From a virus, in the IMG/VR virus record IMGVR_UViG_3300034198_015644, positions 1 to 64,000 of that record: 64,000 nucleotides of DNA. One strand, given 5' to 3'. The notes below the pieces were generated by a model that saw only the letters and a program-made list of their open reading frames with translations, was not told the DNA's origin and made no database searches. This document shows, in pieces, positions 31,880 through 64,000 of the stretch. The position numbers were made by a program, and so were the translations under genes. Position 1 is the first letter of the stretch, and every line of letters starts with the position of its first letter.

Positions 31880-33706
31880 ATGTCAAAAAAATTAAATTAT
31901 TACTCAAGAAACTTCGCAGATTTTAGAACAGAATTAATAAATTTTGTTAGACAGTATTATCCTGATATTTTTTCAGATTTTAATGATAGTTCTATTGGAA
32001 CTATGTTAATCGAATTAAACGCGGGTGTTGCGGACGTATTGGCATTTCAAACCGATAGAATGTTTCAGGAAACACAACTTGATTATGCCCAAGAAAGAAG
32101 ATCATTATTGGCGATAGCAAGAACATATGGATTGAAAATACCCAACAAAAGACCGTCAATAACTATTTTAGATTGGAGTTGTACTGTACCCGTATTAGGT
32201 GATACTTTTGATGTTGCGTATGCACCATTAATTAGAAAAGGGGCACAAGCAATTGGTGCAGGTAGAACATTTGAGGCAATTGAAGATGTTGATTTTTCTT
32301 CACCATATTCATCGGGGGGTATACCTAACAGATTGGTAATACCTAACTTAGATGCCAACGGCAACATATTAAATTATACACTAGTAAAGAGAGAAATTGC
32401 TTTAAACGGGATCACAAAGATTTATAGATATGATGTCAACGTACAAGATTCTAGACCATTTTTTGAATTATATTTACCCGATATTGATGTTTTAAATGTT
32501 GAACAAGTTATAACATTACAGGGTACTAATTATAATACTATACCTTCTTTAAATGAATTTTTAAATTTTAACAATAGATGGTGGGAAGTTCAAGCATTGG
32601 CAGAAAATAAAATTTTTATTGAAGACACGACTAAAGTTTCTGATCGTGCAGGAGTTAGACCTGGTAGGTGGGTCAACATAAGTAGAAAATTTATTACAGA
32701 ATTTACAGATAAAAATTATTGTAAATTAATTTTTGGTTCAGGATCTATAGATACATCAACTTTATTATCATTTTGTGCACCTAGTATAACACAACAAGTA
32801 CAACAAGTTGGTAATTTTATTAATACAAGTGCACTTGGTGAAGTATTAAAACCAAATACAACTCTTTTTGTTAAATATAGAGTTGGAGGTGGGGCTAGTA
32901 CAAATTTAGGTGCCAATATTATTAATACATTAGGTTTTATAGATGTTACTGTAACGGGACCTAACGCAAATACTAATACTAATGTAAAATCTTCAATAAA
33001 AGTTAATAATCCTATACCAGCACTTGGTGGTGCAGATACATTAGACATTGAACAAATTAGGGTATTAATACGATATAATTTTAGCGCACAAAATAGATGT
33101 GTGACTATAAAAGATTATAAATCTAGAATATTATTAATGCCGGGTGAATACGGAGTACCATATAGAACAAATGTAACTGAAGAACAAAATAAGATTGTTG
33201 TTTCATTATTGACACTTGGAACTGACGGTAAATTATCCAATCAATCTACCAATACCCTAAAAGAAAATATCGCAGAGTATTTAGCGGACTATAGAATGAT
33301 TAATGATTTTGTGGTCTTAAAAGATGGTAAAATTTATAATTTAAAATTTGAAATTGATTTATACATTGATAGTGCTTATTCTAAATCTGAAATAGTAACA
33401 AATACTGTTAATGCGGTTTATAACTATATGAATATAATAAACCACGATATGGGTGAAAATATTTATTTAGGTCAATTGATTGAAAATATAAATAATATTG
33501 GAGGAGTATTAAATGTAATTGATATTAGAGTTTTCAATAAAGTAGGAGGAACTGCATATTCCTCAAACGAGGTGTCACAACCATTAATAGATACTACAAC
33601 AAGACAAATAAATTTATTAGGTGAATTTACTTTATTTGCAGACCCTGATTCAATGTTTGAAGTCAAATATCCCGAAAAGGATATTGTAATTAGAATAAAA
33701 TCTTAA
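31880..33706 (+). CDS. Baseplate wedge subunit (T4 gp6 / baseplate J-like)
   Basis: YYSRNFADFRTELI, DFNDSSIGTMLIEL, LIFGSG, YRVGGG..TN, GGAD, QNRCVTIKDY. Confidence 0.88.
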   Translation: MSKKLNYYSRNFADFRTELINFVRQYYPDIFSDFNDSSIGTMLIELNAGVADVLAFQTDRMFQETQLDYAQERRSLLAIARTYGLKIPNKRPSITILDWSCTVPVLGDTFDVAYAPLIRKGAQAIGAGRTFEAIEDVDFSSPYSSGGIPNRLVIPNLDANGNILNYTLVKREIALNGITKIYRYDVNVQDSRPFFELYLPDIDVLNVEQVITLQGTNYNTIPSLNEFLNFNNRWWEVQALAENKIFIEDTTKVSDRAGVRPGRWVNISRKFITEFTDKNYCKLIFGSGSIDTSTLLSFCAPSITQQVQQVGNFINTSALGEVLKPNTTLFVKYRVGGGASTNLGANIINTLGFIDVTVTGPNANTNTNVKSSIKVNNPIPALGGADTLDIEQIRVLIRYNFSAQNRCVTIKDYKSRILLMPGEYGVPYRTNVTEEQNKIVVSLLTLGTDGKLSNQSTNTLKENIAEYLADYRMINDFVVLKDGKIYNLKFEIDLYIDSAYSKSEIVTNTVNAVYNYMNIINHDMGENIYLGQLIENINNIGGVLNVIDIRVFNKVGGTAYSSNEVSQPLIDTTTRQINLLGEFTLFADPDSMFEVKYPEKDIVIRIKS

Positions 33707-46197: not shown

Positions 46198-46557
46198 ATG
46201 GAAATACATAAACTTCGTTGGCCACTTAATGAATGTCCCATTCCCGTTAAATTTAAAACACAAAAACCTATAATTTATCCGATCATAGAAAATTTTTATG
46301 AATTACCCGATGAACAAAAAAATGTTTTATTAGAAATAAAAAAGATAATAAATTTTTATTTACCCGATGCGAAGTTATTTTTATTTGGTTCTAGAATAAA
46401 AGGTAATTGGGATGAAAATAGTGATTATGACATAATGGTTGAAACTAAAGAAAATGGCGAAAAAAATAAAATTTTAAAAAAATACGATTTTGGGGTAAAA
46501 GTAGACATTTGTTTTACCCAAAAATACGAAGCACTAAAAAAAATTGAAATTACTTAA
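46198..46557 (+). CDS. Minimal nucleotidyltransferase (Pol-beta superfamily, MNT-like)
   Basis: LFLFGSRIKG.W...SDYDIMV...KVDI signature. Confidence 0.85.
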   Translation: MEIHKLRWPLNECPIPVKFKTQKPIIYPIIENFYELPDEQKNVLLEIKKIINFYLPDAKLFLFGSRIKGNWDENSDYDIMVETKENGEKNKILKKYDFGVKVDICFTQKYEALKKIEIT

Positions 46558-46618: not shown

Positions 46619-49600
46619 ATGGCGTTCCCAATATTAAGAGATCCTGAAGTAATACATTTATTTGTAGATAAGTTCCCAACTTTATTGAGTGGTCCGTCTA
46701 GTGCAATTACAGAATTTTATAGTTTTTGTGTAAAAAATGGAGTAAATGAACTTTCATTATATGACACATTAAGTGTTTTACCAAGTTCAACAAACTCAGT
46801 TAGTAATTTTATTTATAGTGCAAAAACTTTTAATTACGTATGTGAAGTTGGCGGAACCGTAAATCCTTATGATCCTGCAACATTAGGATTAAAATATTTA
46901 AACTTAATTACTACCTACAATAATGGACAACCAAATCTATCAAGAAAATACGATAGGATAACTATTGAGAATGAATTTTGGAACTTAGAGACAAGTATTA
47001 ATCCATTAAAAAATACTGCAGGATTTACCATATCAACAATTGCGGGAAATACTGTGGCATCCATAGCAGGGGGAATACCCTCATCAATTTTTGTTGTGGG
47101 AAATATGGTTAAAGTTTTTGGTGAATATAGACAAGTCTTAGCAATTGGGGCGACAACAATAACTGTTGATAGAGGATTTACTAATACAGTAACAAATCAA
47201 ACTTTTGAAATTAGAGATAATAAAGTTTCGGGGGCAGAAACATATGCAATTGATTTTGAAACATATTTGTTGCGTTTAAAAAATATTAGAAATGTTGCAG
47301 TTGCAAATAATTTAAAAATAGATGCATATCTTTCAAGAAGAGTAACACAAGTACAATTTTTAAAATTAATTCCATTTATTGACAGAATTTTAATTGAGGC
47401 AGATTACGATCAAAATAATTATTTACTATATAACGACCCAACACAATTAAATAAAATACGAGATGTTTTAATTAGATGTAGTCAAAATAGAACAGGTACT
47501 GTCAATATCAATGTTGGTAACAATAATATGCAAGGTATTGGGACTGACTTTACCAATGAGTTGGGAGTTGGTACAAAGATTTACGTTAGTGGACAAGTTT
47601 TTACAATACAATCTATTGTAAGCTCAACGCAGGCAACTTTATTGGAAACTAACAATAGTAGTACAATTAATAATGCAACTTTTAAAACTTATACAGAATT
47701 TGCCCCAATATTCTATATCAACAAGACATTAAGAAAAACTTGGTTAACCACACCTGTTAGTACTAAAAGTTATGCTGATGTTTTTAAAATGTTTACACTT
47801 AGTGGTTATACAGTAGGAGGATCAGTACAATCAGGTAGTAACCCAATTTGTTATAATTTGGAAGACAACCCATCAATAACTGGTGCGACTAATTTGATTG
47901 GCATATCAATATTTGATAGAACTGAGGCACAATCTATAGACATAAAAGTTGCACAATCTTCTTCACCAAGATCAAGTTGTACCAATCCTTTGGCTAGATC
48001 TATTGGTGCTAACAATACTTATGCAATAACTTTTCAAGGAAATGATTGTACCTGTGATAATGCGACAAATGGATCAGTAACTGCGAATTTTAGTACAATA
48101 CAACCTACCCCATACAACTATACATTTACAAATGGTGGTAGAGTAATTGAGATTACAAATTTAACTACACCACCACCATATACGTTTAGTGGTCTAGGTT
48201 TAGGTACTTGGAACATATCAGTAAGAGATGGTAATAATAGTGTTTCAACAGGTAGTGTCACAATAAATGAATCATTTCAACCAACCATTACAGGTAATTA
48301 TATAAGTGCAGGTCAAGGCGGAATTACAGTATTCTATACGGGAGGTTATAACAACTACTATATTTCAAGAATAGATAACCCAACAAATATAAACAATCAA
48401 TGGGGACCTTTTATTTCATATCACAATGCAGGTAGTGATCCATTTTTTGATTCTAACATAACAGTTAATAATACAACAAAATCATATAATTCATCATCTA
48501 CTCCTGCGTATAATTTTGTACCAAATCAAAGTTATAGTTTTGTTATTGGAGATACAGATGCATGTATTAAAATTTTTACTGTAACAATACCTCAAGCGTC
48601 AACGGGACCTTCAGTAAATATTACTCAAACTACCAATCCATCTTGTGATGCAGCATCAAACGGTTCTATAACTATGGTTGCAGCAGGCACAGGACCTTAC
48701 GTATTTCATGTAACATATCCAAATGGAAATACAAGTAACATAAATAGTGTGAGTACTACACAAGTATTAAATAATTTATCGGCAGGAAATTACTCAGTAA
48801 CAGTAACAGATGCAAATAATGTTACATCTACCCCTGCGGTTACTACAACTTTAACTAATACATATAATTCAAATATAAATGCAACTAGTACATCACCTAA
48901 TCAAGTGTGTTTTCAATTAGTCGCAGGATCAACATATACTATAACATCAGGAGGGGGAACATTCCAATCATTTAATCAAACAGTAAGTGGACCTAACTTT
49001 ACCCCATGTTTTAATAATTTACCAGGAGGACAATATAACTTTAATGTTTTATCTTCTAATGGTTGTTCAGAAACAATTTATTTAACAGTTAATAGTGCAA
49101 CATTAACATTATCATTAAATCAATACGAAAATCCAAGTTGTACACAAGTTAATGATGGAATTATTAATGTATTTGCGACAAGTAATGGTAATGGACAATT
49201 TTCTTATTCCGCATCAAATGGTAGTGTAATTTATAGCAACAATAGTGGTAATTTTACTAATTTGAGTGCCGGTACTTGGACATTATCAGTTAGTCAAAAT
49301 GGAATTTTGGGGAATAATATTGTAGTGCAATTAAATAATTCATTTTATGTTAATGTGACTAGTACAGGTGAAACTGTATGTGTTAGTGCGAGTGGTGGTT
49401 CATTAGGTATTTATACTGTAGATATTAACGGTACGTTACACACCTATAACACCGCATCCACAATAAATTGTTATACTGGTCTTTGTTCGGGAAATGTTGT
49501 CAGAGTTGTTGATGGTGACATTATAAACACTTCAATATCAGGTTGTGTATACACCACAACAACACCTAAAGATTGTGCATTTAATTTTAACGTCACTGCT

Positions 49601-52600
49601 AATACAATTACTTGTGGCGACTACGGATCAATAATAGCTAGGGCGGATGGTGGAGTTACTCCATATATTTATACTGCCACAGGTAATGGTACGTACACGA
49701 ATACTACAGGTAATTTTAATGTTTTACCATCAGGTATATGGACAATAACAGTAGAGGATAACATTGGTAACTCAGGAACTACGACAGTTAATTTAGATAG
49801 TAAACTTAAATTTAGTGCCGACAGTAGCGCTCTTAGTGCAACATGTGTTACCATTATAGATGGTTTAGCACCTTACTATATTTTAATAAATCAAATATTA
49901 TATACTGCCTCTACACAAGGAACTTATTGTTTTGATTTAGAATGTGGTTATAATGGTATTGATGTATATGATAGTTGTACAGGAACTACTTGTGCAAATT
50001 ATTTATTTACTGCTCCGGGTGGAATACAAAGTTTTTTTCAAAATATATTTTGGACTAATTGTAGTGGAATGACACAAAGTGGAATTTTAAATTCAATTAG
50101 CCCTATCATAGGTAATACTTTTAGTACCTGTGCAATTTTTGGAACTCCTGTTACTACAAATTCTAAAATAGAAATAAGTCTAATAGGTTTTTGTCCACCC
50201 GGCACAAATCAAGATTGCGTGGTTGATAATAGTGTGATTGTGTATTATGATTGTCCGGGACCATTAAGTTTAGAACAAACTCAAGATAGTGTCAATCCTA
50301 GCTGTACTGATAGTAGTGATGGTGAGATATACTTTAGTGGTTTTGGTGGGGACTATCCCTATGTTAGTTATTCAGCAATAAATGGTAATACCATATATGT
50401 TAATGGTACAGGTACATTTTCAAATTTAAGTGCAGGTACTTGGACGATTTATGTTGAAGATAGTTCAAACACTATAACATCAACAACTGTAACATTAGTT
50501 TCAGATTTTATAGTTGATTTTACTATCACTAGTTTTACAGAAAACAGCGTGACCATTTGTGCTAATATACCAATCCAATATCAAACATTAGAATATGAAT
50601 TAACGTTTGAAAATCAAACGGCGATATTGAATGCATCTAATTCTTTTTGTAATACATTTACAGGGATAACAGGATGTAGTGTAGTTAATGTTAATTTATG
50701 TTCTTTAAGAAATTATAGAAGGCTTACTAATATTGGTGGTGGAGGTAGAAGTGTAATTAAAGGAAGTGATGGTCTTTTTTATGGGGTAACACAAATTGGT
50801 GGTTTATACAATTATGGGACTATATACAGATATAATGAAACCACTAAGGTTTATACTACATTACATAGTTTTAATGGGACTACAGATGGAAACACCCCGC
50901 AAGATATAATTGAAGTATCTAATGGAAAATTATACGGAATTTGTTTAGTCGGTGGTAATAGTGGTTATGGTACGTTGTTTAGTTGTACCACTTCAGGATC
51001 ATACGCAGTAATACATAATTTTGATGGGACGAACGGTGGAAATCCGGTTAGCAATTTAACTTTGGCTAGTAATGGTGTCATGTATGGAATGACACAATAT
51101 GATTCTACTTATGGATACGGCACTATATTTAGTTGTAGTACCATTGGAAATTTTGGGGTAGTTTATTCTTTCCAATACGTTTTTTCCATACCTTTTGATG
51201 GGTACAACCCAACAGGAAAATTAATCGAAGCATCTAATGGGTTACTTTATGGGGTCACACCACTTGGAGGTTCGAGTGACCAAGGAATTTTATTTAATTA
51301 TGATTATATAAATAATCAATATAACAATTTATTTTCTTTTGATTATGGGTCAGTCGCATATCCAAATGAAATAGTTGAAGGATTGGATAATAATTTATAT
51401 GTAATAGGTGATACATTTTCAAATAAAAGTATTTATAAATTAGATTTATCGGGAACACCAAAAGGAAATGTACATAATTTTTCATTAAGTGACGGATCAA
51501 ATGCAAATAAATTAATAAAAGGACTTAATGGTAATTTATGGGGATCAACTTTATATGGTGGTTTATATAATTTTGGTACAATATTTAGTTGTGATACTTT
51601 AGGTAATTTTGAAGTACTGTATAATTTTAAAAATTCTCTTCCAAATGACAATTTCTTATTGAATACTAACTCAACAATATTTTATGGGACAAGACAATCA
51701 AATATATTGTATAAAATAAATGTTAGTTTACCCGAATCTTGTTGTTTTGATACAACTACAAATTTAAATGATTTGTTAAAACCAAATATAATTTCTCTTT
51801 ATGGAGACTATGTTAATGGGGTGCCAAGTATTTGTACTACGATAGATATTAGTAGCTCAGTTAATGTTTGGTATACTGTAACTGTAAATGGAGAAGAAAA
51901 CATATATGATAGAAGTTTAGAACCTAATTGTTTTAGTGCGCTAACTGAGGGGTTAACAGATGTTTCTATATGTGAATATGTGGATTCATTTAACTATCTA
52001 GCAATACATTATTTTGACTCAACTAACAATACTTTTGGGACTACTCCTAATGGAGGTTTGATAGAGGCAAGTGACGGCAACTTTTATGGTATGACATTTA
52101 ACGGAGGTTCAAATGATTTTGGTGTAATTTATAGTTGTGATACTATAGGTAATTATGGTATAATATATAATTTTGGGTCTGTTTTATTTGATGGAAAATA
52201 TCCACTTGGATCTTTAATACAAGGATCAAACGGAACATTATATGGGATGACATCATCAGACAATATATTAAATTTATGTGGAGTAATTTTTAGTTGTACT
52301 ACAACAGGTAATTATGGGATAATACATAGATTTGATAATACAGTTACTAATGGCGTAACTAAAGGAAGAACACCTGAAGGTTCTTTATGCGAAGTTTCTG
52401 ATGGATTCTTATATGGGGTGACAAGATATGGAGGTTTTAATAATGGTGGGGTAATATTTAAAATTAACCCAACAACAGGACAATATTTTTCAATTTATGA
52501 ATTTGGACAAGCACCAAATGATCCATTAGAACCAATAGAAGGTGTAATAGAAGTTAACAATAAATTATATGGAATGTCTTACTTTGGAGGACAACATAAT

Positions 52601-55600
52601 TTTGGCACTATATATGAATTGGACTTAAACATAGGTGTACCTAATACTGTATTTAGTTTTGAAAATGTAACTGGTTCGGGAGATATTGGATTTTATCCTA
52701 ATGGAAAATTAACTTTAGGGTCAAACGGATTGTTATATGGACTAACAACTGGTGGAGGATTTTATGGAGTAGGGGCATTTTTTGAATTCGATCCAACTTA
52801 TCTAACCTATAGGACAATACATAGTTTTAGTGGCACCCCTATTGACGGTGAGACTGCGACAGGTACTTTATTTGAAGATGAAAATGGAGTATTTTATGGG
52901 TTAACAAAAGAAGGTGGACCTATAGGTCGAGGAACAATTTTTGCTTGTGATATATATGATAATTATAAAATTTTAAAAACTTTAAATAATTCAAACGGTA
53001 GATATCCTGAGAATACATATTTTATAAAGGCATCCGATAATAATTTATATTCTACAGTTAGTGGTGGATTACCTAATAATGGTGGTGGTATTATAAAATT
53101 AACAATTGAAACATTAACGGGTTGTTGTTATAGTGCAACTACAAATATACCACAGTGTTTAGACGGAGTGACTATTGACACATTATGGATAGATAATATG
53201 CCATATGTTAATGTATTAATTAATAGTCAAAATACTACACCTCCATATGAAGTTACGGTTGGGGGTATAACATATCCTTATTATGTTGGATCATTAACCG
53301 GAAATTGTTACCCAATAATCGGATGTGATCCAGTTATTGTAAATGTTTGTGCACCTGAGATTACTTCCCAACAATTAAGTGGATTTACAGTAGAACATAA
53401 ATTTAGTTTTTCAGATGCTTATGATGGTAAAAATCCATATGGTGATTTAACATTAAATTATAATGGAATATTTTATGGAATGACATCGCAGGGTGGTGTA
53501 AATGAGCCAGGATATTTCCCCACAGGATGCGGAACAATTTTTAGTTTTGATCCAATAACTAAGATTTATCAAAAAGTTTATGATTTAGACGCTGATAATG
53601 GAGATGGATTTTTTCCAAAAGGAACATTACAATGTGACCTAAATTATAATTTATATGGGGTTAATTATTACGATGCAGTTAGTGGTTATGGTACGTTGTT
53701 TAGTTGTACCACTTCAGGATCATACGCAGTAATACATAATTTTGACGATGTTAATGGATCAAATCCTGTTACATTACCTAGTAGAGAACCATTAACAGGA
53801 CGATTCCAAAGAGTCGGAACAACAATAAAAAGTGCAACCGGTGATGGAGTTTTATATAGTTTTGATAATGGTACACACGTGAATGATGATTTTAGCTCAA
53901 TAGGGTCTTTTGGTCGAGGCACTAATTCATATTTTAATGACCCATCTATATCTTATAATAAAGGAATAAATTCAAACGGACCCTTATTAGTTGATCAAGA
54001 GTTATCATTAATATATTTCGGATCAACTCAAGCATTTGTTTACGGCATGACAAAAGAAGGGGGAACAAACAATAATGGTGTTATTTTTGCTTATGACTTT
54101 TTTGTCTATGGTTTATACGATATTTATAATTTTACAGGCGGAGCGGACGGAGGAAAACCAACAGGAGGTTTAATTAAGTATAGTTATGGGTTATATAATA
54201 AAGTTTATGGAATGACTTCAGAAGGTGGTGCAGGTTTTGGTGTCATATTTGAGATGGATTTATCAATTTTTGGTTCACCTGTAAATACAATTTTACATAC
54301 ATTTGCGGGAGGAACTTCTGATGGATCTAGACCATATGGTTCATTATACGAATTTAATGGTCGACTTTATGGTATGACATATTATGGAGGAACGAATAAT
54401 GCCGGTGTAATATTCTCATTAGACCCAAGACTTCCTTATCCACACGACTATACAATCATTCATAGCTTTAATGGAAGTACGGGAGGATCAAATCCTGTAG
54501 GTTCATTGACAATGGGCCCTGATGGTAAATTATATGGTATGACATTGTATGGCGGTAATGGAGTAGGTGTAGGAGGTAAAGGTATAATATTTAGTATTGA
54601 TTTTAATTTAACTCAAAGAGCGGCATGTTGTTATCAAACAACCATAGACGTAAATGATCCTAACGATATAAATTTACCTCTTATTGAGGGAACTTGGTTT
54701 AATTCACAACCAACAATTTCTGTGAGCATTGACCCAAATAATTATTATGTCGCTCCTTATACTGTAACTATTGATGGAGTTACATATAACTATGACACAA
54801 ATAGTGCTAAAAATTATTTCCCACAATTAAGTTGTGGTACACATACAGTAGTCATTACACCAAATGCGGGAAACAATACACTTGACTTTTCGGGTTTAAA
54901 ATCGTTTAGTGGACCAACAATTGATCCGGGTTCATTATTTGGTAATCCAATTGAACCAATCACCAACGAATTTTATGCCTTATCTTATGCGGGTGGAGCA
55001 TTAAATTTTGGTACAATTTTTAAGATTGATTTGTTAGGTAATGTTGAGATACTTCATAATTTTTCAGGATCAACTTATGGTGATGGAAACCACCCAATAC
55101 AAGATTTAATTTTATCGTCAAATGGAAAAATGTACGGTACAACCTCGGAAGGCGGAATATATAATGCGGGTACAATATTTAGTTGTGATACTTTAGGTAA
55201 TTATGGTATAGTTTATAATTTTTCTGGTGGCACAAATGGAGGTGGACCGATTCAAAATTTAACAGAAGTTTCTAATGGTATTTTTTATGGATTAGTGTAT
55301 CAAACCGGTGCATTTGGTATGGGTATTATTTTTAGTTGTGATACAATAGGAAATTATAAATTGATTCATAGTTTTAGTGGGTCACCTTATGATGGGATGC
55401 AACCTTTAGAAAGTTTTTATAAACATTCAAATGGTATTTTATATGGTACTACATTTAATGGGGGTACTTATAATGCGGGAACAATTTTTAGTTGTGACAC
55501 TTTAGGTAATTATGGTATAATTCATAGTTTTAATAATACAGTGATTCCCAATAACGGATGCAACCCAAGATGTACGTTAATTGAGGGAGATAATGGTATT

Positions 55601-58600
55601 TTATATGGTACTACATCAAATGGTGGAAATATAGGTTCATATGGGACAATTTTTACTTGTAGTACATCAGGAAATTATGGAGTAATACATAAATTTACAG
55701 GTGTAGATGGTGACGGACCACAAGAAGGTCTTTTTAAAGGTCAAAGTAATATTTTTTATGGGACTACTTATGGTGGTGGGATTCATAATTTGGGTACAAT
55801 TTATAGTTGTGATACTTTAGGTAATCATGGGGTAATTTACAATTTTAATGGTTCAGGTTCAACCGGATCTTTACCGTATAATGGATTATATGTGGCAGAA
55901 AATGATATTTTATACGGTTTCACTCAGTACGGCGGAATTTATTCGGCGGGAAATTTTTATAGATTTAATCCATATAATTTTCTATATGGAGATTGTCCTT
56001 ATTCGGGTACTGTTAACATACCATGTTTTTATTTAGATGAATTAAATGTGGAAGTTCCATGTACAACAAACGATGGTCAAATATCAGTTCAGGCATTGGG
56101 AGGTAATCCTGATTACACATATACTTTGACATATACTAGTATAACAAATGATACATACAGTATAACACAATTTGGTACCACATTTCAACCAATAACGTTT
56201 ATCAATTTAAGTGCATTAACATGGGGATTAATTGTCACAGATTCTAGTGGACAAACGTTAAGTCAAATTTATGATTTTAATCCAATCGATAACCCATCTA
56301 TCACTACAGTTAATGGTGATACTATTTGTATTAGTTTAGATCAAGTGGGATTATCATTAACAGGTATTACATTAGATGGTAATATACTATATAGTGGGAA
56401 TATAGGTCTAACTAATTTTTGTTTTACTGCAGGTTGTGGTAACCATTTGGCCCAATTTTATACTACCAATGGATGTATGTACCCCATTCCCTTTTCTTTT
56501 GATTGCCCACCAAGTAATTTAGTCTTCACAAATTTAAGTCAGATAGATCCTTTTTGTTGTAACTCTTCTGCAAAAATTAATGTGGCAGTAACAGGCGGTA
56601 CATTGCCATATACGTATACTATATATAATATACCAACTACCGCGACTTATACTAATACTACGGGTAATTTTACAAACATATACCCACCTACAGGAACTTG
56701 GCAAGTAATTGCAACGGATGCAAATGGTAGCACGATAAGTAGTAATATTTTTACATTAAATTCAATATTTTTTGCTGATATTACATTTATTAATAATATC
56801 GCAGTTATTAATTTTAGTGGATCTACTGGAATAGATGTACTAATAAATGGAGTTTCACAAACTTTAGGTTATATTGCAACTAAAGTAAGTGGGGGAACTT
56901 TAAGTTATCCAATACCTTGTGGAACTAATATTAATGTTGAAGTTATTGGTAGAATAGTTATAAATCCTATAACTAAAACTTATGAATATTGTCCTATAAG
57001 TGCAAGTACATTTTATCCTTGTCCTTTATTTTGTAGTAATATAATTAGTCAACCAAGATGTCCAGGACAAAACGCTAATTCTGTTACAGTCTTAGTAACA
57101 GGCGGAACACCAAACTACAATATAACATTAACTAATGGTACGTTAATTTATACTGCTAACACATCACTAAATAGTTATATTTTTAACGATAACCCACCTT
57201 TAGTCACTTTAATACAAGATGATTGGACAATAACTGTTATAGATTCTGATGGTACAGTTTGTATACAAGATATAACTATACAATCTAGTTTTGATGCAAC
57301 AATAACAGGTACGTCAACGGGGGCATGTTTTACGGTAGTTGGGGGAAATCCACCATATACACTTTATATTGATGGCGTGATTTATACACCATTAATAAAT
57401 CAAATAAGTAATGATATTGTTTATTGCGTACCACTAAATTGCGGTAATCATCAATTAGAAATAAGAGAAACAGGAGTACCACCAGCGGCATGTTCAATAG
57501 TTTTAGATTACTTTAGTTCCTGTCAATTGACTTGTAGTACAATAACTACAGATCCCGGTTGTAATGATAATTGTAGTGGATCAGTTACGATAAGTGTAAC
57601 TGGTGGAACACCACCATACAACTATAGTTTAATTAGAACCTCACCATCGTTTTATCAAACGACATATACGGGTCCACAAACTACTTGGACTTTCTATGAT
57701 CTATGCGAAGGGACTTATGATATTACAGTATCGGCGTTAACTAATGGTGCGTTTTGTACATCTAATTTGAATCTAGCATCAATATATGATGTAGTAGTTA
57801 GTGGATATGCAGTTTCAACTAACTGTCTATATGGTGTAATGTGTATTGACATTACGGGAGGAACACCACCTTATGATGTATATATTGATGGAATACTAAG
57901 AGCAACTGCAATTACTCAAACACATAGTTGTTATAGTGCAACTTGTGGTGTAAATCATACTTATCAGGTAATTGATTCTGCACCTCCTTGTAATATACCA
58001 TTAAATCAGGCATTACTTAAAAATACAAGTTTTACAGGGACTAGTGATTGGATATTGACTAATGATTATACTGGTAGTACTATAATATCGGGAGGTAGTG
58101 CAATAGTATCTTCTACGACATATAATACTTTACAAGTATTTAGATTTTTACAAGATTATATTTTCCCGTTCCAAAAACCAATATCAATAAAATATAATGT
58201 CAGTGTTAGTACAGGGACAATTCAAAATTACAATTATTTACCACAATTTAGGATACAAAGTCCTTTTGGTAGTACTAATATGGGTGGAATTGCACCTAAT
58301 TCGACATATTCTACAACAAAACAGATAGTAAGTACGGTAGAACCTGTAATTTTCTCAGGTTTTGGTATTAATTTTTATCAATCGTTCCTACCTAATAATA
58401 AAACTGAGGTAAAAGACATGCAATTGACATTATTGTCTTATACTGTAGATTGTAGATGTTCGGCTAGCGGAACTACATATGTACCTTGCAACCCACCATT
58501 AACATTAAATGTTGTTTCTTATACAGAACCAAATTGTTTCAGTGCTTGTAATGGAACTATCATCGTTTCTGCAACCGGAGGAGTACTCCCATATAGTTAC

Positions 58601-58924
58601 TCAGCAACTAATGGAACGTCAATTTACATAAGCCCTAACGGGGTATTTAACGATCTTTGTGAAGATACTTGGGACTTGTCGGTTAGTGATAGTTGTAATA
58701 CAGTTGTTACAAACGCAGGATTCTTCTTACCAAACTCATTCCATGTAACAGTGGATACGTATCCTACAGAGTTTTGTGTGGGAATAACAGGAGGAACACC
58801 ACCTTACCATGTTTTCATAGATAATGTAGAAATTGATACCATTAGTCAAAGTCCGGTTAATATTTGTTATAGCGCAAGTTGTGGGGTAACCACAATTATA
58901 CGTGTGGTGGATAGCTCTACTTAA
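46619..58924 (+). CDS. Giant (4101 aa) Cys-rich tail fibre/adhesin: GH-like N-terminal domain, SprB-like stalk modules, four GloVer (TIGR03803-like) repeat beta-propellers
   Basis: NPSC...GGTPPY.Y...NLSAGTW stalk repeats; repeated L..A.NG.LYG.T..GG..N.GTIF in four blocks at about 50710-51725, 51990-53105, 53380-54605, 54880-55975. Confidence 0.75.
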   Translation: MAFPILRDPEVIHLFVDKFPTLLSGPSSAITEFYSFCVKNGVNELSLYDTLSVLPSSTNSVSNFIYSAKTFNYVCEVGGTVNPYDPATLGLKYLNLITTYNNGQPNLSRKYDRITIENEFWNLETSINPLKNTAGFTISTIAGNTVASIAGGIPSSIFVVGNMVKVFGEYRQVLAIGATTITVDRGFTNTVTNQTFEIRDNKVSGAETYAIDFETYLLRLKNIRNVAVANNLKIDAYLSRRVTQVQFLKLIPFIDRILIEADYDQNNYLLYNDPTQLNKIRDVLIRCSQNRTGTVNINVGNNNMQGIGTDFTNELGVGTKIYVSGQVFTIQSIVSSTQATLLETNNSSTINNATFKTYTEFAPIFYINKTLRKTWLTTPVSTKSYADVFKMFTLSGYTVGGSVQSGSNPICYNLEDNPSITGATNLIGISIFDRTEAQSIDIKVAQSSSPRSSCTNPLARSIGANNTYAITFQGNDCTCDNATNGSVTANFSTIQPTPYNYTFTNGGRVIEITNLTTPPPYTFSGLGLGTWNISVRDGNNSVSTGSVTINESFQPTITGNYISAGQGGITVFYTGGYNNYYISRIDNPTNINNQWGPFISYHNAGSDPFFDSNITVNNTTKSYNSSSTPAYNFVPNQSYSFVIGDTDACIKIFTVTIPQASTGPSVNITQTTNPSCDAASNGSITMVAAGTGPYVFHVTYPNGNTSNINSVSTTQVLNNLSAGNYSVTVTDANNVTSTPAVTTTLTNTYNSNINATSTSPNQVCFQLVAGSTYTITSGGGTFQSFNQTVSGPNFTPCFNNLPGGQYNFNVLSSNGCSETIYLTVNSATLTLSLNQYENPSCTQVNDGIINVFATSNGNGQFSYSASNGSVIYSNNSGNFTNLSAGTWTLSVSQNGILGNNIVVQLNNSFYVNVTSTGETVCVSASGGSLGIYTVDINGTLHTYNTASTINCYTGLCSGNVVRVVDGDIINTSISGCVYTTTTPKDCAFNFNVTANTITCGDYGSIIARADGGVTPYIYTATGNGTYTNTTGNFNVLPSGIWTITVEDNIGNSGTTTVNLDSKLKFSADSSALSATCVTIIDGLAPYYILINQILYTASTQGTYCFDLECGYNGIDVYDSCTGTTCANYLFTAPGGIQSFFQNIFWTNCSGMTQSGILNSISPIIGNTFSTCAIFGTPVTTNSKIEISLIGFCPPGTNQDCVVDNSVIVYYDCPGPLSLEQTQDSVNPSCTDSSDGEIYFSGFGGDYPYVSYSAINGNTIYVNGTGTFSNLSAGTWTIYVEDSSNTITSTTVTLVSDFIVDFTITSFTENSVTICANIPIQYQTLEYELTFENQTAILNASNSFCNTFTGITGCSVVNVNLCSLRNYRRLTNIGGGGRSVIKGSDGLFYGVTQIGGLYNYGTIYRYNETTKVYTTLHSFNGTTDGNTPQDIIEVSNGKLYGICLVGGNSGYGTLFSCTTSGSYAVIHNFDGTNGGNPVSNLTLASNGVMYGMTQYDSTYGYGTIFSCSTIGNFGVVYSFQYVFSIPFDGYNPTGKLIEASNGLLYGVTPLGGSSDQGILFNYDYINNQYNNLFSFDYGSVAYPNEIVEGLDNNLYVIGDTFSNKSIYKLDLSGTPKGNVHNFSLSDGSNANKLIKGLNGNLWGSTLYGGLYNFGTIFSCDTLGNFEVLYNFKNSLPNDNFLLNTNSTIFYGTRQSNILYKINVSLPESCCFDTTTNLNDLLKPNIISLYGDYVNGVPSICTTIDISSSVNVWYTVTVNGEENIYDRSLEPNCFSALTEGLTDVSICEYVDSFNYLAIHYFDSTNNTFGTTPNGGLIEASDGNFYGMTFNGGSNDFGVIYSCDTIGNYGIIYNFGSVLFDGKYPLGSLIQGSNGTLYGMTSSDNILNLCGVIFSCTTTGNYGIIHRFDNTVTNGVTKGRTPEGSLCEVSDGFLYGVTRYGGFNNGGVIFKINPTTGQYFSIYEFGQAPNDPLEPIEGVIEVNNKLYGMSYFGGQHNFGTIYELDLNIGVPNTVFSFENVTGSGDIGFYPNGKLTLGSNGLLYGLTTGGGFYGVGAFFEFDPTYLTYRTIHSFSGTPIDGETATGTLFEDENGVFYGLTKEGGPIGRGTIFACDIYDNYKILKTLNNSNGRYPENTYFIKASDNNLYSTVSGGLPNNGGGIIKLTIETLTGCCYSATTNIPQCLDGVTIDTLWIDNMPYVNVLINSQNTTPPYEVTVGGITYPYYVGSLTGNCYPIIGCDPVIVNVCAPEITSQQLSGFTVEHKFSFSDAYDGKNPYGDLTLNYNGIFYGMTSQGGVNEPGYFPTGCGTIFSFDPITKIYQKVYDLDADNGDGFFPKGTLQCDLNYNLYGVNYYDAVSGYGTLFSCTTSGSYAVIHNFDDVNGSNPVTLPSREPLTGRFQRVGTTIKSATGDGVLYSFDNGTHVNDDFSSIGSFGRGTNSYFNDPSISYNKGINSNGPLLVDQELSLIYFGSTQAFVYGMTKEGGTNNNGVIFAYDFFVYGLYDIYNFTGGADGGKPTGGLIKYSYGLYNKVYGMTSEGGAGFGVIFEMDLSIFGSPVNTILHTFAGGTSDGSRPYGSLYEFNGRLYGMTYYGGTNNAGVIFSLDPRLPYPHDYTIIHSFNGSTGGSNPVGSLTMGPDGKLYGMTLYGGNGVGVGGKGIIFSIDFNLTQRAACCYQTTIDVNDPNDINLPLIEGTWFNSQPTISVSIDPNNYYVAPYTVTIDGVTYNYDTNSAKNYFPQLSCGTHTVVITPNAGNNTLDFSGLKSFSGPTIDPGSLFGNPIEPITNEFYALSYAGGALNFGTIFKIDLLGNVEILHNFSGSTYGDGNHPIQDLILSSNGKMYGTTSEGGIYNAGTIFSCDTLGNYGIVYNFSGGTNGGGPIQNLTEVSNGIFYGLVYQTGAFGMGIIFSCDTIGNYKLIHSFSGSPYDGMQPLESFYKHSNGILYGTTFNGGTYNAGTIFSCDTLGNYGIIHSFNNTVIPNNGCNPRCTLIEGDNGILYGTTSNGGNIGSYGTIFTCSTSGNYGVIHKFTGVDGDGPQEGLFKGQSNIFYGTTYGGGIHNLGTIYSCDTLGNHGVIYNFNGSGSTGSLPYNGLYVAENDILYGFTQYGGIYSAGNFYRFNPYNFLYGDCPYSGTVNIPCFYLDELNVEVPCTTNDGQISVQALGGNPDYTYTLTYTSITNDTYSITQFGTTFQPITFINLSALTWGLIVTDSSGQTLSQIYDFNPIDNPSITTVNGDTICISLDQVGLSLTGITLDGNILYSGNIGLTNFCFTAGCGNHLAQFYTTNGCMYPIPFSFDCPPSNLVFTNLSQIDPFCCNSSAKINVAVTGGTLPYTYTIYNIPTTATYTNTTGNFTNIYPPTGTWQVIATDANGSTISSNIFTLNSIFFADITFINNIAVINFSGSTGIDVLINGVSQTLGYIATKVSGGTLSYPIPCGTNINVEVIGRIVINPITKTYEYCPISASTFYPCPLFCSNIISQPRCPGQNANSVTVLVTGGTPNYNITLTNGTLIYTANTSLNSYIFNDNPPLVTLIQDDWTITVIDSDGTVCIQDITIQSSFDATITGTSTGACFTVVGGNPPYTLYIDGVIYTPLINQISNDIVYCVPLNCGNHQLEIRETGVPPAACSIVLDYFSSCQLTCSTITTDPGCNDNCSGSVTISVTGGTPPYNYSLIRTSPSFYQTTYTGPQTTWTFYDLCEGTYDITVSALTNGAFCTSNLNLASIYDVVVSGYAVSTNCLYGVMCIDITGGTPPYDVYIDGILRATAITQTHSCYSATCGVNHTYQVIDSAPPCNIPLNQALLKNTSFTGTSDWILTNDYTGSTIISGGSAIVSSTTYNTLQVFRFLQDYIFPFQKPISIKYNVSVSTGTIQNYNYLPQFRIQSPFGSTNMGGIAPNSTYSTTKQIVSTVEPVIFSGFGINFYQSFLPNNKTEVKDMQLTLLSYTVDCRCSASGTTYVPCNPPLTLNVVSYTEPNCFSACNGTIIVSATGGVLPYSYSATNGTSIYISPNGVFNDLCEDTWDLSVSDSCNTVVTNAGFFLPNSFHVTVDTYPTEFCVGITGGTPPYHVFIDNVEIDTISQSPVNICYSASCGVTTIIRVVDSST
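50959..51024 (+). repeat. 66-bp exact direct repeat, copy 1 (copy 2 at 53680-53745)
   Basis: TAGTGGTTATGGTACGTTGTTTAGTTGTACCACTTCAGGATCATACGCAGTAATACATAATTTTGA at both positions. Confidence 0.9.
53680..53745 (+). repeat. 66-bp exact direct repeat, copy 2
   Basis: Identical to 50959-51024. Confidence 0.9.
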
Positions 58925-58964
58925 AAAAGTAAAATATAAAAGATTAAAACTATGTACGTTTTTT

Positions 58965-59000
58965 ATAAAATCCTTAATTTTAAATAATTAAGGATTTTAT
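58965..59000. terminator. 15-bp perfect inverted repeat after the giant fibre gene (terminator or processing hairpin)
   Basis: ATAAAATCCTTAATT-TTAAAT-AATTAAGGATTTTAT. Confidence 0.65.
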
Positions 59001-59036
59001 CCTTTTATTTTTATTAAAAAACTTATAAAAAATCAG

Positions 59037-59059
59037 AAAACAAAATAATTATTTTAAAA
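59037..59059 (+). promoter_or_regulatory. 23-bp leader element, copy 2
   Basis: Identical to 46588-46610, 7 nt before ATG 59067. Confidence 0.6.
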
Positions 59060-59066
59060 ACAAAAG

Positions 59067-60947
59067 ATGCCTATTCCAGCACCATATAATCCTAAAAATT
59101 TACATTTATGGGTTGATAATGTTACTAGTTTGTTAACTAACAGTACCAATTTTTTCCAATTAATTGATAATAACTGTATTAACACATTCACTATGTATCA
59201 AATACCTACGATAACTTCGCAGGTACAATCTTTGGGAAATTTTATATGTGAGGCAAAAACAAATCATGGAGTCTGTAGTGTGGCAGGAATTATAAACCCA
59301 TACGATTGGACTCCTCCTCCGGCCGGTACAAGAAACGTTCAATCTATTGTCAATTACAATAATAACCCAATTACACAGGCAAATTCATGTCGTAGAATTG
59401 ATTATCTCACAATTGAGAGTGAGTTTTGGAATATAGACGATCCCGCAATAAATCCTGTAGTTTCTAATGGTTGTACCATAAATATAGCTGCTAACTCATC
59501 AACAGGTACAGTTTCAGGTTGTTTAGGAGGAGTAACCGCAGGTATGATAATAAAAGTTTCTGTTGGGGCGACTTTTGTTTATAGACAAATAATTGGTATT
59601 AGTGGTAATATTGTAACATTTGATAGAGTTTTTGATCCAATTAACGCGTACTTAGCTGCACCATTTACAGTAATTAACAACCAAACCTTCTATGGAATTG
59701 ATTTTGAAACACTATTATATAGGATAAAATATAATATACGACCTATGGCAATTGCAAATAACTTATTGCCATTAGAAATATATGTTTCAAGAGCTTTAAC
59801 CAGCGATCAATTTGAAAGACTAATACCACACGTTGATAGATTATTAATTGAGGTAGATTATAATCAATTAAGTTATCCTAGATACAACGATAACGATGTA
59901 ACTAATCCCTCATGGTCAACTAACACTATTAAAAACGCTCTAAGTCTTTGTAGCGTCATTAGAACGGGTACAATTTCAATTGCACAAAATAGTAATATTG
60001 TAACAGGTAGTGGAACTTTATTTACAAGAGATTTGGGTGAACAATCACAAATAATTGTAAATGGAAACCAAATTTATACAATTGCCACAATAATTTCAGA
60101 TACTCAGGCAACAATTGTTGGTACTTCCCCAATCAATATAACTGCAGGTAGCACATACGCATCTTATTTTGATTACATGCCAATTTTTTATACATTACCA
60201 GCTGGGGCATTTGGTACTCCTCTTAGGAGACAATGGATGTTAAACCCTTCACCAAAAAGTTATGCGGATGTATATAGATTCCATTCTCAAAACGCCTATA
60301 CTGCAGGTGGATCAATACAGGTAGGAAATACCCCTATTGCATTTAACAACGAAACAGATCCATATATTGTTGATTCAGTTTCATTAGTTGGTTTATCGTT
60401 ATTTGTTTGGTCTTCTGTTAGTAATTTATCTCCTGTTGCACCACCAGATTATCCTTGTCCACCTTGTAGTGGAGAAACCATAATAGGGTGCGAGGTTACC
60501 GCAATCACAACCTCAAATTGTTTAATCGCAACATATACTAATCCAGCTTGTGATGGTGTTTGTGATGGCACTATAAGTGCGTCTACAACATATGGAATTG
60601 CGCCATTTACTTATTATATAACAGGAATAACTAATTCAATAACTTATGTAAGTAGTACAGGTTTTTTCAGCGGATTATGTGAAGACACTTATATTTTATG
60701 TGTTACAGATTCTGCATCAAATACCGAATGTTATTATCAAAATATAGAATTAGTAAATACATTTTATGCATCTATAAATTCATTTTTAAATGGTTTTTGT
60801 GTTACAATAAGTGGAGGTACAGGAATTTATTATGTATACAAGGATAATCAAGTTTTGCCTTGGGATTATAATAATACTACAAATTGTTATAGTGCGGATT
60901 GTTCCACACTTTCAGTAATAACAGTAAGAGATACTAGCACATTATAA
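59067..60947 (+). CDS. Fibre subunit paralogous to the N-terminus of the giant protein, plus one stalk unit
   Basis: Shared HLWVD/HLFVD, INPYD/VNPYD, TIESEFWN/TIENEFWN, IDFET, DRLLIEVDY/DRILIEADY, KSYADV motifs. Confidence 0.8.
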   Translation: MPIPAPYNPKNLHLWVDNVTSLLTNSTNFFQLIDNNCINTFTMYQIPTITSQVQSLGNFICEAKTNHGVCSVAGIINPYDWTPPPAGTRNVQSIVNYNNNPITQANSCRRIDYLTIESEFWNIDDPAINPVVSNGCTINIAANSSTGTVSGCLGGVTAGMIIKVSVGATFVYRQIIGISGNIVTFDRVFDPINAYLAAPFTVINNQTFYGIDFETLLYRIKYNIRPMAIANNLLPLEIYVSRALTSDQFERLIPHVDRLLIEVDYNQLSYPRYNDNDVTNPSWSTNTIKNALSLCSVIRTGTISIAQNSNIVTGSGTLFTRDLGEQSQIIVNGNQIYTIATIISDTQATIVGTSPINITAGSTYASYFDYMPIFYTLPAGAFGTPLRRQWMLNPSPKSYADVYRFHSQNAYTAGGSIQVGNTPIAFNNETDPYIVDSVSLVGLSLFVWSSVSNLSPVAPPDYPCPPCSGETIIGCEVTAITTSNCLIATYTNPACDGVCDGTISASTTYGIAPFTYYITGITNSITYVSSTGFFSGLCEDTYILCVTDSASNTECYYQNIELVNTFYASINSFLNGFCVTISGGTGIYYVYKDNQVLPWDYNNTTNCYSADCSTLSVITVRDTSTL

Positions 60948-60948
60948 A

Positions 60949-63900
60949 ATGCCATATATTTTTAACGACAAATATTATAAAATAATACATAAAATAGGAC
61001 TTAATAATCTTAGTCAACAATCAAATAGTTCATTAATTATACCTAACTCCTTTCTAAATAATTTATTTTATGCAACAACGGAGGAAACGAGCTTAGTAGG
61101 TTCCAATTTTCGAGGTACTATATATAGAGCTGATGCGGATGGTAACGTTTTTGATGTTTTGTATCTTTTTTCGGGATTAACTCAACCACTCACACTATTT
61201 AAAGACGGTGATGGAGATCGACCAATCGGATCATTAATCGAAGCACCAAATGGGTTGTTGTATGGAACAACTGATGGTGGCGGGGTTTGGACTAATAGTA
61301 GTCAAACTCCTATTTATGGAAATGGTATATTATTTAGCTATGACCCTTTGGGTAATACATACAATATTTTATATAGATTTTCGGGTATAACAAATTTTGA
61401 TCCGATACCTTCTTTAACGGATGGTGGTAGGCCACAAGCAAATTTAAAAGTAATTTCAGGTACAACAATATTTGGTACAACTTGTGCCGGAGGTTATAAC
61501 CCTATAGGTGGGGGAACTGAATTAGGGTCTATTTGGAAATTTGATACGTCAACTAATACATATTCAATTTTACACCATATTACTGCATCTACGGAAGGAA
61601 GAAAAGTAACTGAACTTATTTTGGCTAATGATGATAATTTATATTTTACAACCAAATTTGATGGTGCGGGTTTTCCATGGCCTGCTGGAGGATCATTAGT
61701 TAAATTAGATCTAAATGGGAATAGTACAGTAATACATCAGTTTACCAATACTCCTGATGGGGCAGATCCTTCCGCATCATTATTACAGGCATCAAATAAT
61801 TTAATTTATGGTACAACTACTCAAGGAGGAACAGGAGGATATGGGACAATATATACGTGTGATACTTCAGGTAATTACGGAATCATATATAATTTTTTAG
61901 GTGGAATTAATGGACAAAATCCATCAGGATCTTTATATGAATATAGCCCTGGATTATTTTATGGTATGGCATATGGTGGGGGTAATTTTAATTTAGGTGT
62001 TATTTATAGTTCAGATACTTTTGGAAATGTAGGAGTAATTCACCATTTTGGATCTTTTTATCTAGATGGAGAATCTAATTATCGACAAATTACTAATCTT
62101 AGTACAGGAGTTAATGGATCTCTTTTTGGTGTTACAAACGGTGGAGGAATAGGAAGCGGGACAATTTATACTTGGATTGATACTTGTAGTTTTATTTATT
62201 CCAGAAGCGGAACAACATTAAATTATTTCGATCCAAATCATATTGAATATTCGTATTATTTTGAAACTATAAGTCCATCAAATATAAGAGTAGCATTTGC
62301 ATGTAGAAATAATAATCTTTTTTGGAGAAAAATTACCACATCATTTAATGTTATAGATGAATTTACGTTAGGAAATTTTTTAGACGAAGCGCCCGTCATA
62401 AATAGAAATATATTTTTACCTCCAGCAGCATTTAAAGGAATGGCATATGCCGGACCAAATCAACTCTTTGTAAACAATAGAACTTCACAAAGAGTTGAAT
62501 TATATGATATAACAAATACAAGTGCAACATTAATAACTCCAGTATTTTCACTACCTATAACACATCAGTTTAGTATAGGAAATTATACAGATTCTTTGTA
62601 TGTAAATAACACTCAAACAGTATTTTATATTAATTTTAATAATACATTTACATCGTTTGATTCTAGTGGACAAATTTTAAATGACGGGGCACCACCTTTA
62701 GGTAATGTAGTTAGTATGTATGTACATAATGGTGATATATACACTACTACTGACAATAATTTAATTTATCTTACCGAACCTTCCGCACCAAGTGGATGGA
62801 CTTTTACCTTGATAGGTAATACACCATATAACGAACCAATGTATGCAATCGCACAAGATAATATTTCTGAATGTCTATTATCAATCCCAACGGTAGATTA
62901 TTCTTGTGTAACTTTATTTGTACGTTATGCGGATGATTTTTATATTTATGAACTTGACCCCAATAATCCCGATATTTTAAATTATAGATTTAAGCCTTTT
63001 TATGCGACAACTCAATTAGCGACAAACGGAATTTATCTTTGGGCACATAGAAGTACAGTTCCTTCATCATTTATTGATGTGTATGATTTGGCCGCATCGT
63101 ATGCTACTCTTAATGGGGTATTAGTACCAAGTATGCAAATTACTGTTCCAATTAACACTAGACTTGGTGGAATTTTTTATATATCACCTAACCAATTATA
63201 TGTAGTTAATGAAACTTTAAATACGGTAGAATTGTGGGACATATCAACACCACCTACACCTATAATAACAACAGTATTTAATATACCCGCACCATATTCG
63301 CCAGTAATACTTAACTCTTCCTATAATTCTTTATATGTTGATTTAAATAATAATATATTTTATTTGACAACTTTTACTGATTTTGTTTCATTTAGTGTAA
63401 CACCTGGCAACCCTAATCCAACTGTTTTAAATACCTCATCAAGTACAATTCTCCCAAATGGGCATCAAATAATTAACATGTATTTGGATAATGGACAAAT
63501 ATATGTTACAACTCAACAAGGGTATATATATTTGGCACAACCGGCGGTGGGAGGAGGATGGACTTTTATACAACAAACATTTATACCTAGACCAACAAGA
63601 TTTGGTGTGACACAAACTTATGCAGAAGATTGTGTAGGTACTGTTCCACCCACACCTTTAACAGGTTGTGTTATCACAGGATTAACAGTAACAGGTTGTT
63701 CTGATTTTGTTATAGTAAGTGGGGATAGTCAAGACATAACATGTTTACATGATGGTAGTGTATCAATTCAAATATCAGGAGGATGCCCAAATTATACATA
63801 TACATTATACCACCCAAATATAAGTACACAAGTAAATCAAGTAGTAACACCTAACAAAAATTGGACTTTTACAGGATTAACTGATCCGGGAAATTACTAT

Positions 63901-64000
63901 GTATCTATAAGTGGATGTAGTGGGGCGACGTTAGTGACATTAAGTCCATTTACAATTTTAGATAACAATACTTTTTATAATAACATCTTCCAATTAAACA
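60949..64000 (+). CDS. Third fibre/adhesin protein (partial, runs off the window): GloVer propeller, two further propeller-like repeats, then stalk modules; not in the ORF track
   Basis: ATG 1 nt after the upstream TAA; MPYIFNDKYYKIIHKIG...RPIGSLIEAPNGLLYGTTDGGG...; no stop seen in the portions read to 64000. Confidence 0.8.
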   Translation, partial: MPYIFNDKYYKIIHKIGLNNLSQQSNSSLIIPNSFLNNLFYATTEETSLVGSNFRGTIYRADADGNVFDVLYLFSGLTQPLTLFKDGDGDRPIGSLIEAPNGLLYGTTDGGGVWTNSSQTPIYGNGILFSYDPLGNTYNILYRFSGITNFDPIPSLTDGGRPQANLKVISGTTIFGTTCAGGYNPIGGGTELGSIWKFDTSTNTYSILHHITASTEGRKVTELILANDDNLYFTTKFDGAGFPWPAGGSLVKLDLNGNSTVIHQFTNTPDGADPSASLLQASNNLIYGTTTQGGTGGYGTIYTCDTSGNYGIIYNFLGGINGQNPSGSLYEYSPGLFYGMAYGGGNFNLGVIYSSDTFGNVGVIHHFGSFYLDGESNYRQITNLSTGVNGSLFGVTNGGGIGSGTIYTWIDTCSFIYSRSGTTLNYFDPNHIEYSYYFETISPSNIRVAFACRNNNLFWRKITTSFNVIDEFTLGNFLDEAPVINRNIFLPPAAFKGMAYAGPNQLFVNNRTSQRVELYDITNTSATLITPVFSLPITHQFSIGNYTDSLYVNNTQTVFYINFNNTFTSFDSSGQILNDGAPPLGNVVSMYVHNGDIYTTTDNNLIYLTEPSAPSGWTFTLIGNTPYNEPMYAIAQDNISECLLSIPTVDYSCVTLFVRYADDFYIYELDPNNPDILNYRFKPFYATTQLATNGIYLWAHRSTVPSSFIDVYDLAASYATLNGVLVPSMQITVPINTRLGGIFYISPNQLYVVNETLNTVELWDISTPPTPIITTVFNIPAPYSPVILNSSYNSLYVDLNNNIFYLTTFTDFVSFSVTPGNPNPTVLNTSSSTILPNGHQIINMYLDNGQIYVTTQQGYIYLAQPAVGGGWTFIQQTFIPRPTRFGVTQTYAEDCVGTVPPTPLTGCVITGLTVTGCSDFVIVSGDSQDITCLHDGSVSIQISGGCPNYTYTLYHPNISTQVNQVVTPNKNWTFTGLTDPGNYYVSISGCSGATLVTLSPFTILDNNTFYNNIFQLN

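Follow-up and report, generated by a model that had tools for sequence, protein, structure and literature searches.

In chaperone-usher pili (PapD/FimC), an immunoglobulin (Ig)-like subunit that lacks its G strand receives this strand from the next subunit, and the result is a non-covalent head-to-tail fibre. The type V pili (FimA/Mfa1) of the Bacteroidota are also strand-exchange fibres, which are made from lipoprotein precursors, are activated by proteolysis and rely on C-terminal strand donation. In complement C3, MG6 is an FN3-like domain with a large insertion within which the chain is cut, and the two resulting polypeptides are held together by a disulfide; C3 folds as a single precursor and is cut later. 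Here we describe three consecutive phage genes, designated P1, P2 and P3, that lie or begin in the first 64 kb of the 106,489-bp IMG/VR virus record IMGVR_UViG_3300034198_015644 (this stretch of 64,000 nucleotides is referred to below as the window). Their products are built from two types of module, A and B. We found that P1 and P2 both stop inside a B module, in front of what is predicted to be its last strand, and that P2 and P3 each carry a lone copy of such a strand directly before an A module. We propose, with about as much weight for as against, that the terminal B of each protein is completed in trans by the strand of the next protein, in the order P1-P2-P3.

As in chaperone-usher pili, the terminal B of P1 is modelled without its seventh (G) strand. 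In contrast to these pili, in which the donor is an N-terminal extension, the candidate donor strand of the phage proteins is internal and follows 474 residues in P2 or 906 residues in P3. Moreover, whereas the chaperone-usher fibre is a homopolymer, the phage parts are three different proteins encoded by consecutive genes, and their assembly, unlike that of the pili, would occur in the cytoplasm of the infected cell. No match to PF00345 or PF00577, indicative of a PapD-like chaperone or usher, was found in the 106-kb record, which is classed as linear and is itself ~32% complete (CheckV). Strand exchange as proposed here would be shared with type V pili, and the Bacteroidota are the likely host phylum; in contrast to type V pili, the lipoprotein, proteolysis and C-terminal donor features were not seen in the phage proteins, and there is no relation in sequence. 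Like MG6 of C3/alpha-2-macroglobulin-type proteins, B is predicted to be an FN3-like domain with a large insertion and a chain break inside that insertion. Indeed, C3, C5 and A2M chains were included among the Foldseek matches of an AlphaFold2 (AF2) model of P1 residues 3469-4101, which was built from an alignment of nine family proteins and had a mean predicted local distance difference test (pLDDT) score of 79.8. Unlike the parts of MG6, the phage halves are made from separate genes and would have to find each other. The phage system belongs to neither the chaperone-usher donor-strand class nor the C3 MG6 class.

The modules themselves have relatives in the host phylum. Like SprB-repeat adhesins, the phage proteins possess A modules that match PF13573, and the A-B profile finds thousands of giant proteins in the Bacteroidota. 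Fragments of GhpA, an Ig-rod protein of the Bacteroidota (the Aureispira grappling-hook protein), were among the top Foldseek matches of the P1 model (E 5.5e-10 to 5.9e-09), which suggests that the modelled Ig-rod building style is common to the phage proteins and host-phylum surface filaments. In contrast to SprB adhesins and GhpA, which are single chains with signal peptides and type IX secretion system (T9SS) sorting domains, the phage proteins possess none of these features. A split of the modules between genes was seen in the phage family only.

P1 consists of an N-domain of ~455 residues, SprB/FN3-like A and B modules, four GloVer arrays, one CBM-like insert and a terminal open B. It matched PF13573 (SprB repeat) in 5 stretches with 72.7 bits (1.8e-20; Pfam gathering cut-off 28), and TIGR03803 (GloVer) in 22 stretches with 691.7 bits (6.6e-214; NCBIfam cut-off 44). 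In front of each GloVer array lies a B-like core, and after the array comes a G-like strand that begins with Cys (CCFDTTTNLND, CCYSATTNIPQC, CCYQTTIDVND and CPYSGTVNIPC, respectively). An earlier note on this DNA, made by reading the sequence alone, had listed six C-x9-C strings as strands that close B directly. All six were present in P1, but CPYSGTVNIPC follows a GloVer array and CSASGTTYVPC follows a 158-residue insert. That two strands follow inserts rather than B directly helps the argument made below. The 158-residue insert (P1 residues 3789-3946; model residues 325-476) superposed on CBM4/16/22, on BT_4411 and on the fibre protein gp52 of Klebsiella phage Kp7 (Z 9.0-10.0, root-mean-square deviation (rmsd) ~3 Å, 120-136 residues aligned). 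Although its modelled fold resembles a CBM jelly roll, it had no sequence-family match. The cysteines of a PPC...DC-x-C pattern flank the insert and may hold its base together.

We used the AF2 model to determine which domain owns the C-x9-C strand; were it part of A, the genes would merely be divided at a normal boundary between domains. The model was aligned by VIA-align to ~48,000 solved chains, and strand pairing was deduced from DSSP and from the residues at which numerous agreeing matches began and ceased to align. Single FN3 domains aligned to a region beginning at model residues 163-170 and ending at 250-257 (Z 9.1-9.8, rmsd 1.9-3.0 Å, 74-86 residues). In the model, the A module found there has seven strands of its own, and the C-x9-C strand at residues 158-165 falls outside it. 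Since the single FN3 alignments cover A only and exclude residues 158-165, A appears to be complete without C-x9-C. Twelve tandem-FN3 matches covered a longer region, from model residues 162-169 to 486-491, the best being 4lxo_A (Z 10.2, rmsd 3.7 Å, 162 residues aligned). The sum of A (89 residues), the B core (67 residues) and the strand (8 residues) is ~164 residues, which indicates that the tandem-FN3 alignments bypass the 158-residue insert (model residues 321-478) and take residues 480-487 as the last strand of B.

Taken together, these alignments support the view that A is a self-contained, seven-stranded FN3-like (SprB-type) domain, that C-x9-C forms the seventh (G) strand of the B before it, likewise FN3-like, and that this strand rejoins B even past the CBM-like insert. 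Because the strand returns to B across the insert, the cargo would be located in the F-G loop of B. We regard this cis architecture, a small FN3-like domain with cargo in its F-G loop, as well supported by the model, and the premise of the earlier note that C-x9-C closes B is borne out to the same extent. We also considered a self-contained strand-A-B unit in which the strand pairs with its own downstream B, and rejected it because model strand 480-487 aligns within the upstream B. Internal B modules were modelled with six strands plus C-x9-C, and the terminal B of P1 with six strands; in this domain, F-strand pairing covers 4 residues (model residues 626-629), versus 9 in internal B modules.

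The open reading frames (ORFs), C-termini and lone strands described in the earlier note were all found (Table 1), as was its claim that P1 and P2 stop at the same position of B in front of the closing strand. P1 ends with ...GVTTIIRVVDSST (...IIRVVDSST), 1 residue past the end of the B hidden Markov model (HMM) match, and P2 ends with ...STLSVITVRDTSTL (...VITVRDTSTL); both stop 1-2 residues beyond the sixth B strand. Their terminal B modules are alike, and both are full-length matches to the B profile. In P2 and in P3 a lone C-x9-C, with no B body of its own, stands directly before an A module, as the note had it. P2 had no Pfam match; its A module nevertheless aligns with the A modules of P1. 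P3 begins with 906 residues of cargo, composed of GloVer repeats (166.4 bits against TIGR03803 in 8 stretches; cut-off 44) followed by repeat-rich sequence, and its first 1017 residues scored 26.5 bits against PF13573, slightly under the cut-off of 28. The note also asked whether the third gene ends in an open B; it does not, as the C-terminus of full-length P3 (4829 residues) is of another kind. The three proteins thus possess two open B modules and two lone strands, in matching order. In the whole 106-kb record, A and B modules are confined to P1, P2 and P3, whose genes are adjacent.

We next asked whether the relationship between B and its strand holds throughout the family, using an A/B HMM census of 17 proteins: P1, P2, P3, 7 other P1-like, 6 other P2-like and 1 other P3-like protein. 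Among 50 confident B cores, the strand (C-x8-11-C) followed after a loop of 1-11 residues in 21 and after an insert of 75-291 residues in 15, while in the remaining 14 a stop codon came next; no other continuation was observed (0/50). At one aligned site of close homologues, P0161 bears a 92-residue insert where P0162 and P0088 have a 3-residue loop. The two gene junctions obey the same grammar of B, insert and strand, but at the point of insertion one gene stops and the next one starts. The P2-like proteins (n=7; 48-66% identity, 621-636 residues) all begin with M-S/P-F/I/W-P and all stop 1-8 residues past ...ITV.D.S. Seven of the 8 P1-like proteins, some of them from separate 50%-identity clusters, stop 0-3 residues past the same B strand. 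Overall, the stop fell 0-8 residues after the last B strand in 14/15 P1- and P2-like proteins. The split point is conserved, more so than by chance, and the homologues split at the same position instead of randomly. In our view, there is good support for two genes being cut, in a conserved manner, within this loop of B between strands F and G.

The lone strand is itself conserved. Its mean pairwise identity in P2-like proteins was 0.73, compared to 0.46 for the linker, 0.57 for the N-domain, 0.62 for A and 0.67 for B, placing it at the 87th percentile of all 11-residue windows. P1-like proteins have a PCxxC motif after the N-domain, followed almost directly by A, and no C-x9-C. Absence of the lone strand from P1-like proteins is expected if the first protein has nothing upstream to complete. 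The P3-like protein P0058 carries a strand (CIITGVTVTGC) nearly identical to that of P3, preceded by 394 residues of cargo versus 906 in P3. At the starts of both P3 and P0058, no module other than GloVer was recognized, and no separate attachment domain was seen. The cysteines of B also follow a pattern. Cys1 and Cys2 either co-occur or are jointly missing, a pattern suggestive of a disulfide within B. Almost all of the ~65 B cores keep Cys3 (xCG), as does each terminal open B module, where there is no cis partner for it; retention of Cys3 fits a partner Cys on the strand, albeit without proving one.

Based on these findings, we propose the following scheme. The stalks would alternate between A, which is self-contained, and B, a small domain whose G strand is C-x9-C and whose F-G loop would act as a socket for whole cargo domains, among them the GloVer arrays, the CBM-like module and others. 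The chain would exit B after strand F, form the cargo, come back as the G strand and enter the next A. At two sites, the gene would have been cut exactly where a cargo insert would start, so that P1 and P2 end right after strand F, and the next protein supplies the cargo first and then the G strand. The G strand of P2 would thereby complete the last B of P1, and that of P3 the last B of P2, giving a P1-P2-P3 fibre joined head to tail, from whose joints the N-terminal cargo of P2 and P3 would hang. As P3 lacks an open B, the chain would end with it. Once the particle is extracellular, a bond between the invariant B Cys and a Cys of the strand may lock each joint. Such completion in trans is the simplest reading that covers the conserved stop, the conserved lone strand and its absence from the first protein, as well as the retained Cys and the agreement in number and order between open B modules and lone strands.

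The main rival to completion in trans, and one that we regard as doubtful, holds that the stops mark a plain domain boundary. P1, P2 and P3 would then be independent, the six-stranded terminal B would be a stable cap, the lone C-x9-C would serve as a linker or pack on its own cargo or A module, and the genes would be cut in the F-G loop since this loop is tolerant. Several observations weigh against completion in trans, and four of them favour a plain boundary. The first is that AF2 modelled the strand-less terminal B with confidence (pLDDT 83-88 as far as the last 20 residues), and that, to judge by the model, six strands might suffice to make this domain a stable cap. The second concerns the N-terminal domains of P1 (46619-47983) and P2 (59067-60431), which are paralogous (38% identity over 446 residues, E 3e-87) and contain two small beta-rich inserts, one of which matches a tail-fibre N-terminus (phrog_1980, 1.8e-07). 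With homologous N-domains and this partial match, P1 and P2 could each attach to the virion alone. Third, the lone strands are only moderately like cis strands, in that they form their own sequence subtypes (...TTSNC and ...TVTGC) and scored -3.8 to +2.9 against the cis-strand profile, compared to 4.2 +/- 5.0 for cis strands and -9.1 +/- 4.9 for random sequence. Fourth, the P1-like protein P0148 (4153 residues, on a 28,543-bp JGI contig) runs on for ~290 Cys-rich residues beyond its last B, indicating that another continuation is tolerated; P0148 is the sole P1-like exception, and P0008, its presumed P2-like neighbour, retains the lone strand. As pairs of neighbours, P0160/P0004, P0148/P0008 and P0161/P0058 are suggested solely by contigs of equal size. 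Finally, no chaperone that could hold the open B is evident.

In turn, a plain boundary leaves unexplained why the stop lies so close to strand F in all but one of the P1- and P2-like proteins, why the lone strand is better conserved than the domains around it, why P1-like proteins lack the strand and why the third B Cys is retained in every terminal B. It is also at odds with the assignment of the strand to B rather than A in the sole usable model. The AF2 model of whole P2 had a pLDDT of 52, with the lone strand at ~25 and devoid of secondary structure, and is too poor to place the strand.

A second alternative retains strand complementation and alters the wiring: either P2 polymerizes with itself to give P1-(P2)n-P3, with P1 as the base and P3 as the cap, or the strands pair with other virion proteins. 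We consider this improbable. It gains from the fact that P2 carries both an open B and a lone strand, from the likeness of the terminal B modules of P1 and P2, and from P3 having a lone strand without an open end while P1 has the reverse. Against it, the strands of P2 type and of P3 type fall into separate conserved subtypes, a better fit to dedicated than to promiscuous partners, and the genes for P2 and P3 are tightly coupled, which suggests matched protein amounts. P3 starts 1 nt past the P2 stop (TAA-A-ATG), and the two genes are predicted to be translationally coupled. The strongest form of the self-adding scheme, a self-assembling pilus-like fibre held by a trans-completed, disulfide-locked FN3-like domain, with P1 as base, P2 self-adding and P3 as cap, seems to us slightly less probable still; in that form, fibre length and cargo display would be set by chaperone-free strand-exchange polymerization.

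An artefact or decay, in which an ancestral giant gene was broken by nonsense mutation, frameshift or assembly error, or is rejoined by recoding, bypassing or protein splicing, is very unlikely: although the three genes follow one another on one strand and have module types in common, the P2 homologues share an M-S-F-P-A-P-type N-terminus homologous to the true P1 N-terminus, P2 keeps a length of 621-636 residues in seven lineages, the sequence contains nothing intein-like (P2 opens with the N-domain itself), and P1 and P2 are separated by a gap of 142 nt (58925-59066) that contains a hairpin and many stops and leaves just 9 nt open 5' of the P2 ATG. None of 200 shuffles gave an equally good hairpin. 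With the P2 N-terminus conserved, the earlier note was very probably correct in stating that this gap is not a sequencing frameshift. Bypassing, read-through and split inteins were rejected on sequence grounds, given the stops and hairpin in the gap and the N-domain of P2. No fused P1-P2 form was found among proteins of 1097-3130 residues, which is weak evidence as the search was confined to this length range and word-limited.

If completion in trans is true, it would, to judge by a full-text literature search, be the first described donor-strand-type completion of an Ig-like domain that joins different phage fibre proteins; the search brought up no earlier case of such joints in phage fibres, which is no proof of absence. 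It would explain how a fibre of ~9,500 adhesin-like residues is built from separate genes, and the cargo-bearing loop would double as the gene break point. Regardless of the trans step, a small FN3-like domain that holds cargo in its F-G loop would constitute a clean natural display scaffold, and, if assembly is spontaneous, the split pair could be used as a protein-ligation tag.

Table 1. Coordinates of P1, P2 and P3, their modules and features nearby in the window
Feature	Position	Strand	Basis or remark
P1, 4101 aa, fibre/adhesin-like	46619..58924	+	ORF; PF13573 and TIGR03803 matches
Four GloVer (TIGR03803) repeat arrays in P1	50801..55993	+	Profile match and translation
B core strands A-F, cis reference, P1 3722-3788, ends ...HTYQVIDS	57782..57982	+	Six strands, model 256-318
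CBM-like beta-sandwich insert, 158 aa, P1 3789-3946	57983..58456	+	Predicted in F-G loop of preceding B
C-x9-C strand CSASGTTYVPC, P1 3947-3957	58457..58489	+	Model strand 480-487, pLDDT 83-91
Last A module of P1, 3958-4039	58490..58735	+	Modelled 7-stranded FN3-like domain
Terminal open B of P1, 4040-4101	58736..58921	+	Six strands (model 573-629), no G strand
Terminator-like 15-bp hairpin, AT-rich, then T-rich run	58965..59000	+	Free energy (dG) -14.6 kcal/mol, z -5.65
P2, 626 aa	59067..60947	+	ORF; P1-paralogous N-domain, lone putative G strand, one A module, open B
Lone C-x9-C strand CEVTAITTSNC, P2 475-485	60489..60521	+	Sequence; conserved in P2-like proteins
A module of P2, 486-564	60522..60758	+	Aligns with P1 A modules
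Terminal open B of P2, 565-626	60759..60944	+	B HMM; stop position kept in 7/7 homologues
P3, 4829 aa in full	60949-75438 of record	+	First 1017 aa inside window
Lone C-x9-C strand CVITGLTVTGC, P3 907-917	63667..63699	+	Between cargo and A
First A module of P3, 918-1007	63700..63969	+	PF13573 at residues 925-954
Tail sheath protein	227-2737		Upstream of P1-P2-P3
Baseplate-wedge protein	31880-33706		Upstream of P1-P2-P3
Tail-fibre-like protein, 853 aa	43626-46187		Upstream of P1-P2-P3

This is probably a very large (jumbo) phage, and the record may not cover all of its virion module. Nearly all long ORFs of the window are on the + strand. Searches for relatives by P2 alignment found none among IMG/VR viral contigs or metagenome contigs, a contig search with the upstream 853-residue protein likewise found none, and GenBank phages gave no blastn or tblastn match. 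An identical P2 was also found on a 143,792-bp contig.

The N-domain shared by P1 and P2 had no Pfam or PDB sequence match. It bears an ENEFWN motif that recalls glycoside hydrolases, the sole hint of a (beta/alpha)8 TIM barrel of that kind. BLAST lent no support to a third copy of this domain at P3 residues ~2100-2400, in which a GLENEFWN motif occurs (best E against the P2 N-domain 0.084).

Between the baseplate/fibre-like gene and P1 lies an ORF of 119 residues (46198-46557) with a GS...D-x-D pattern that recalls small nucleotidyltransferases and with no PHROG match. Near its C-terminus, the 853-residue tail-fibre-like protein has G-[ST]-S-G-S-S repeats in a row, which give way to a Cys-rich end; this repeat run gave collagen-like matches to phrog_1806, phrog_5073 and phrog_366.

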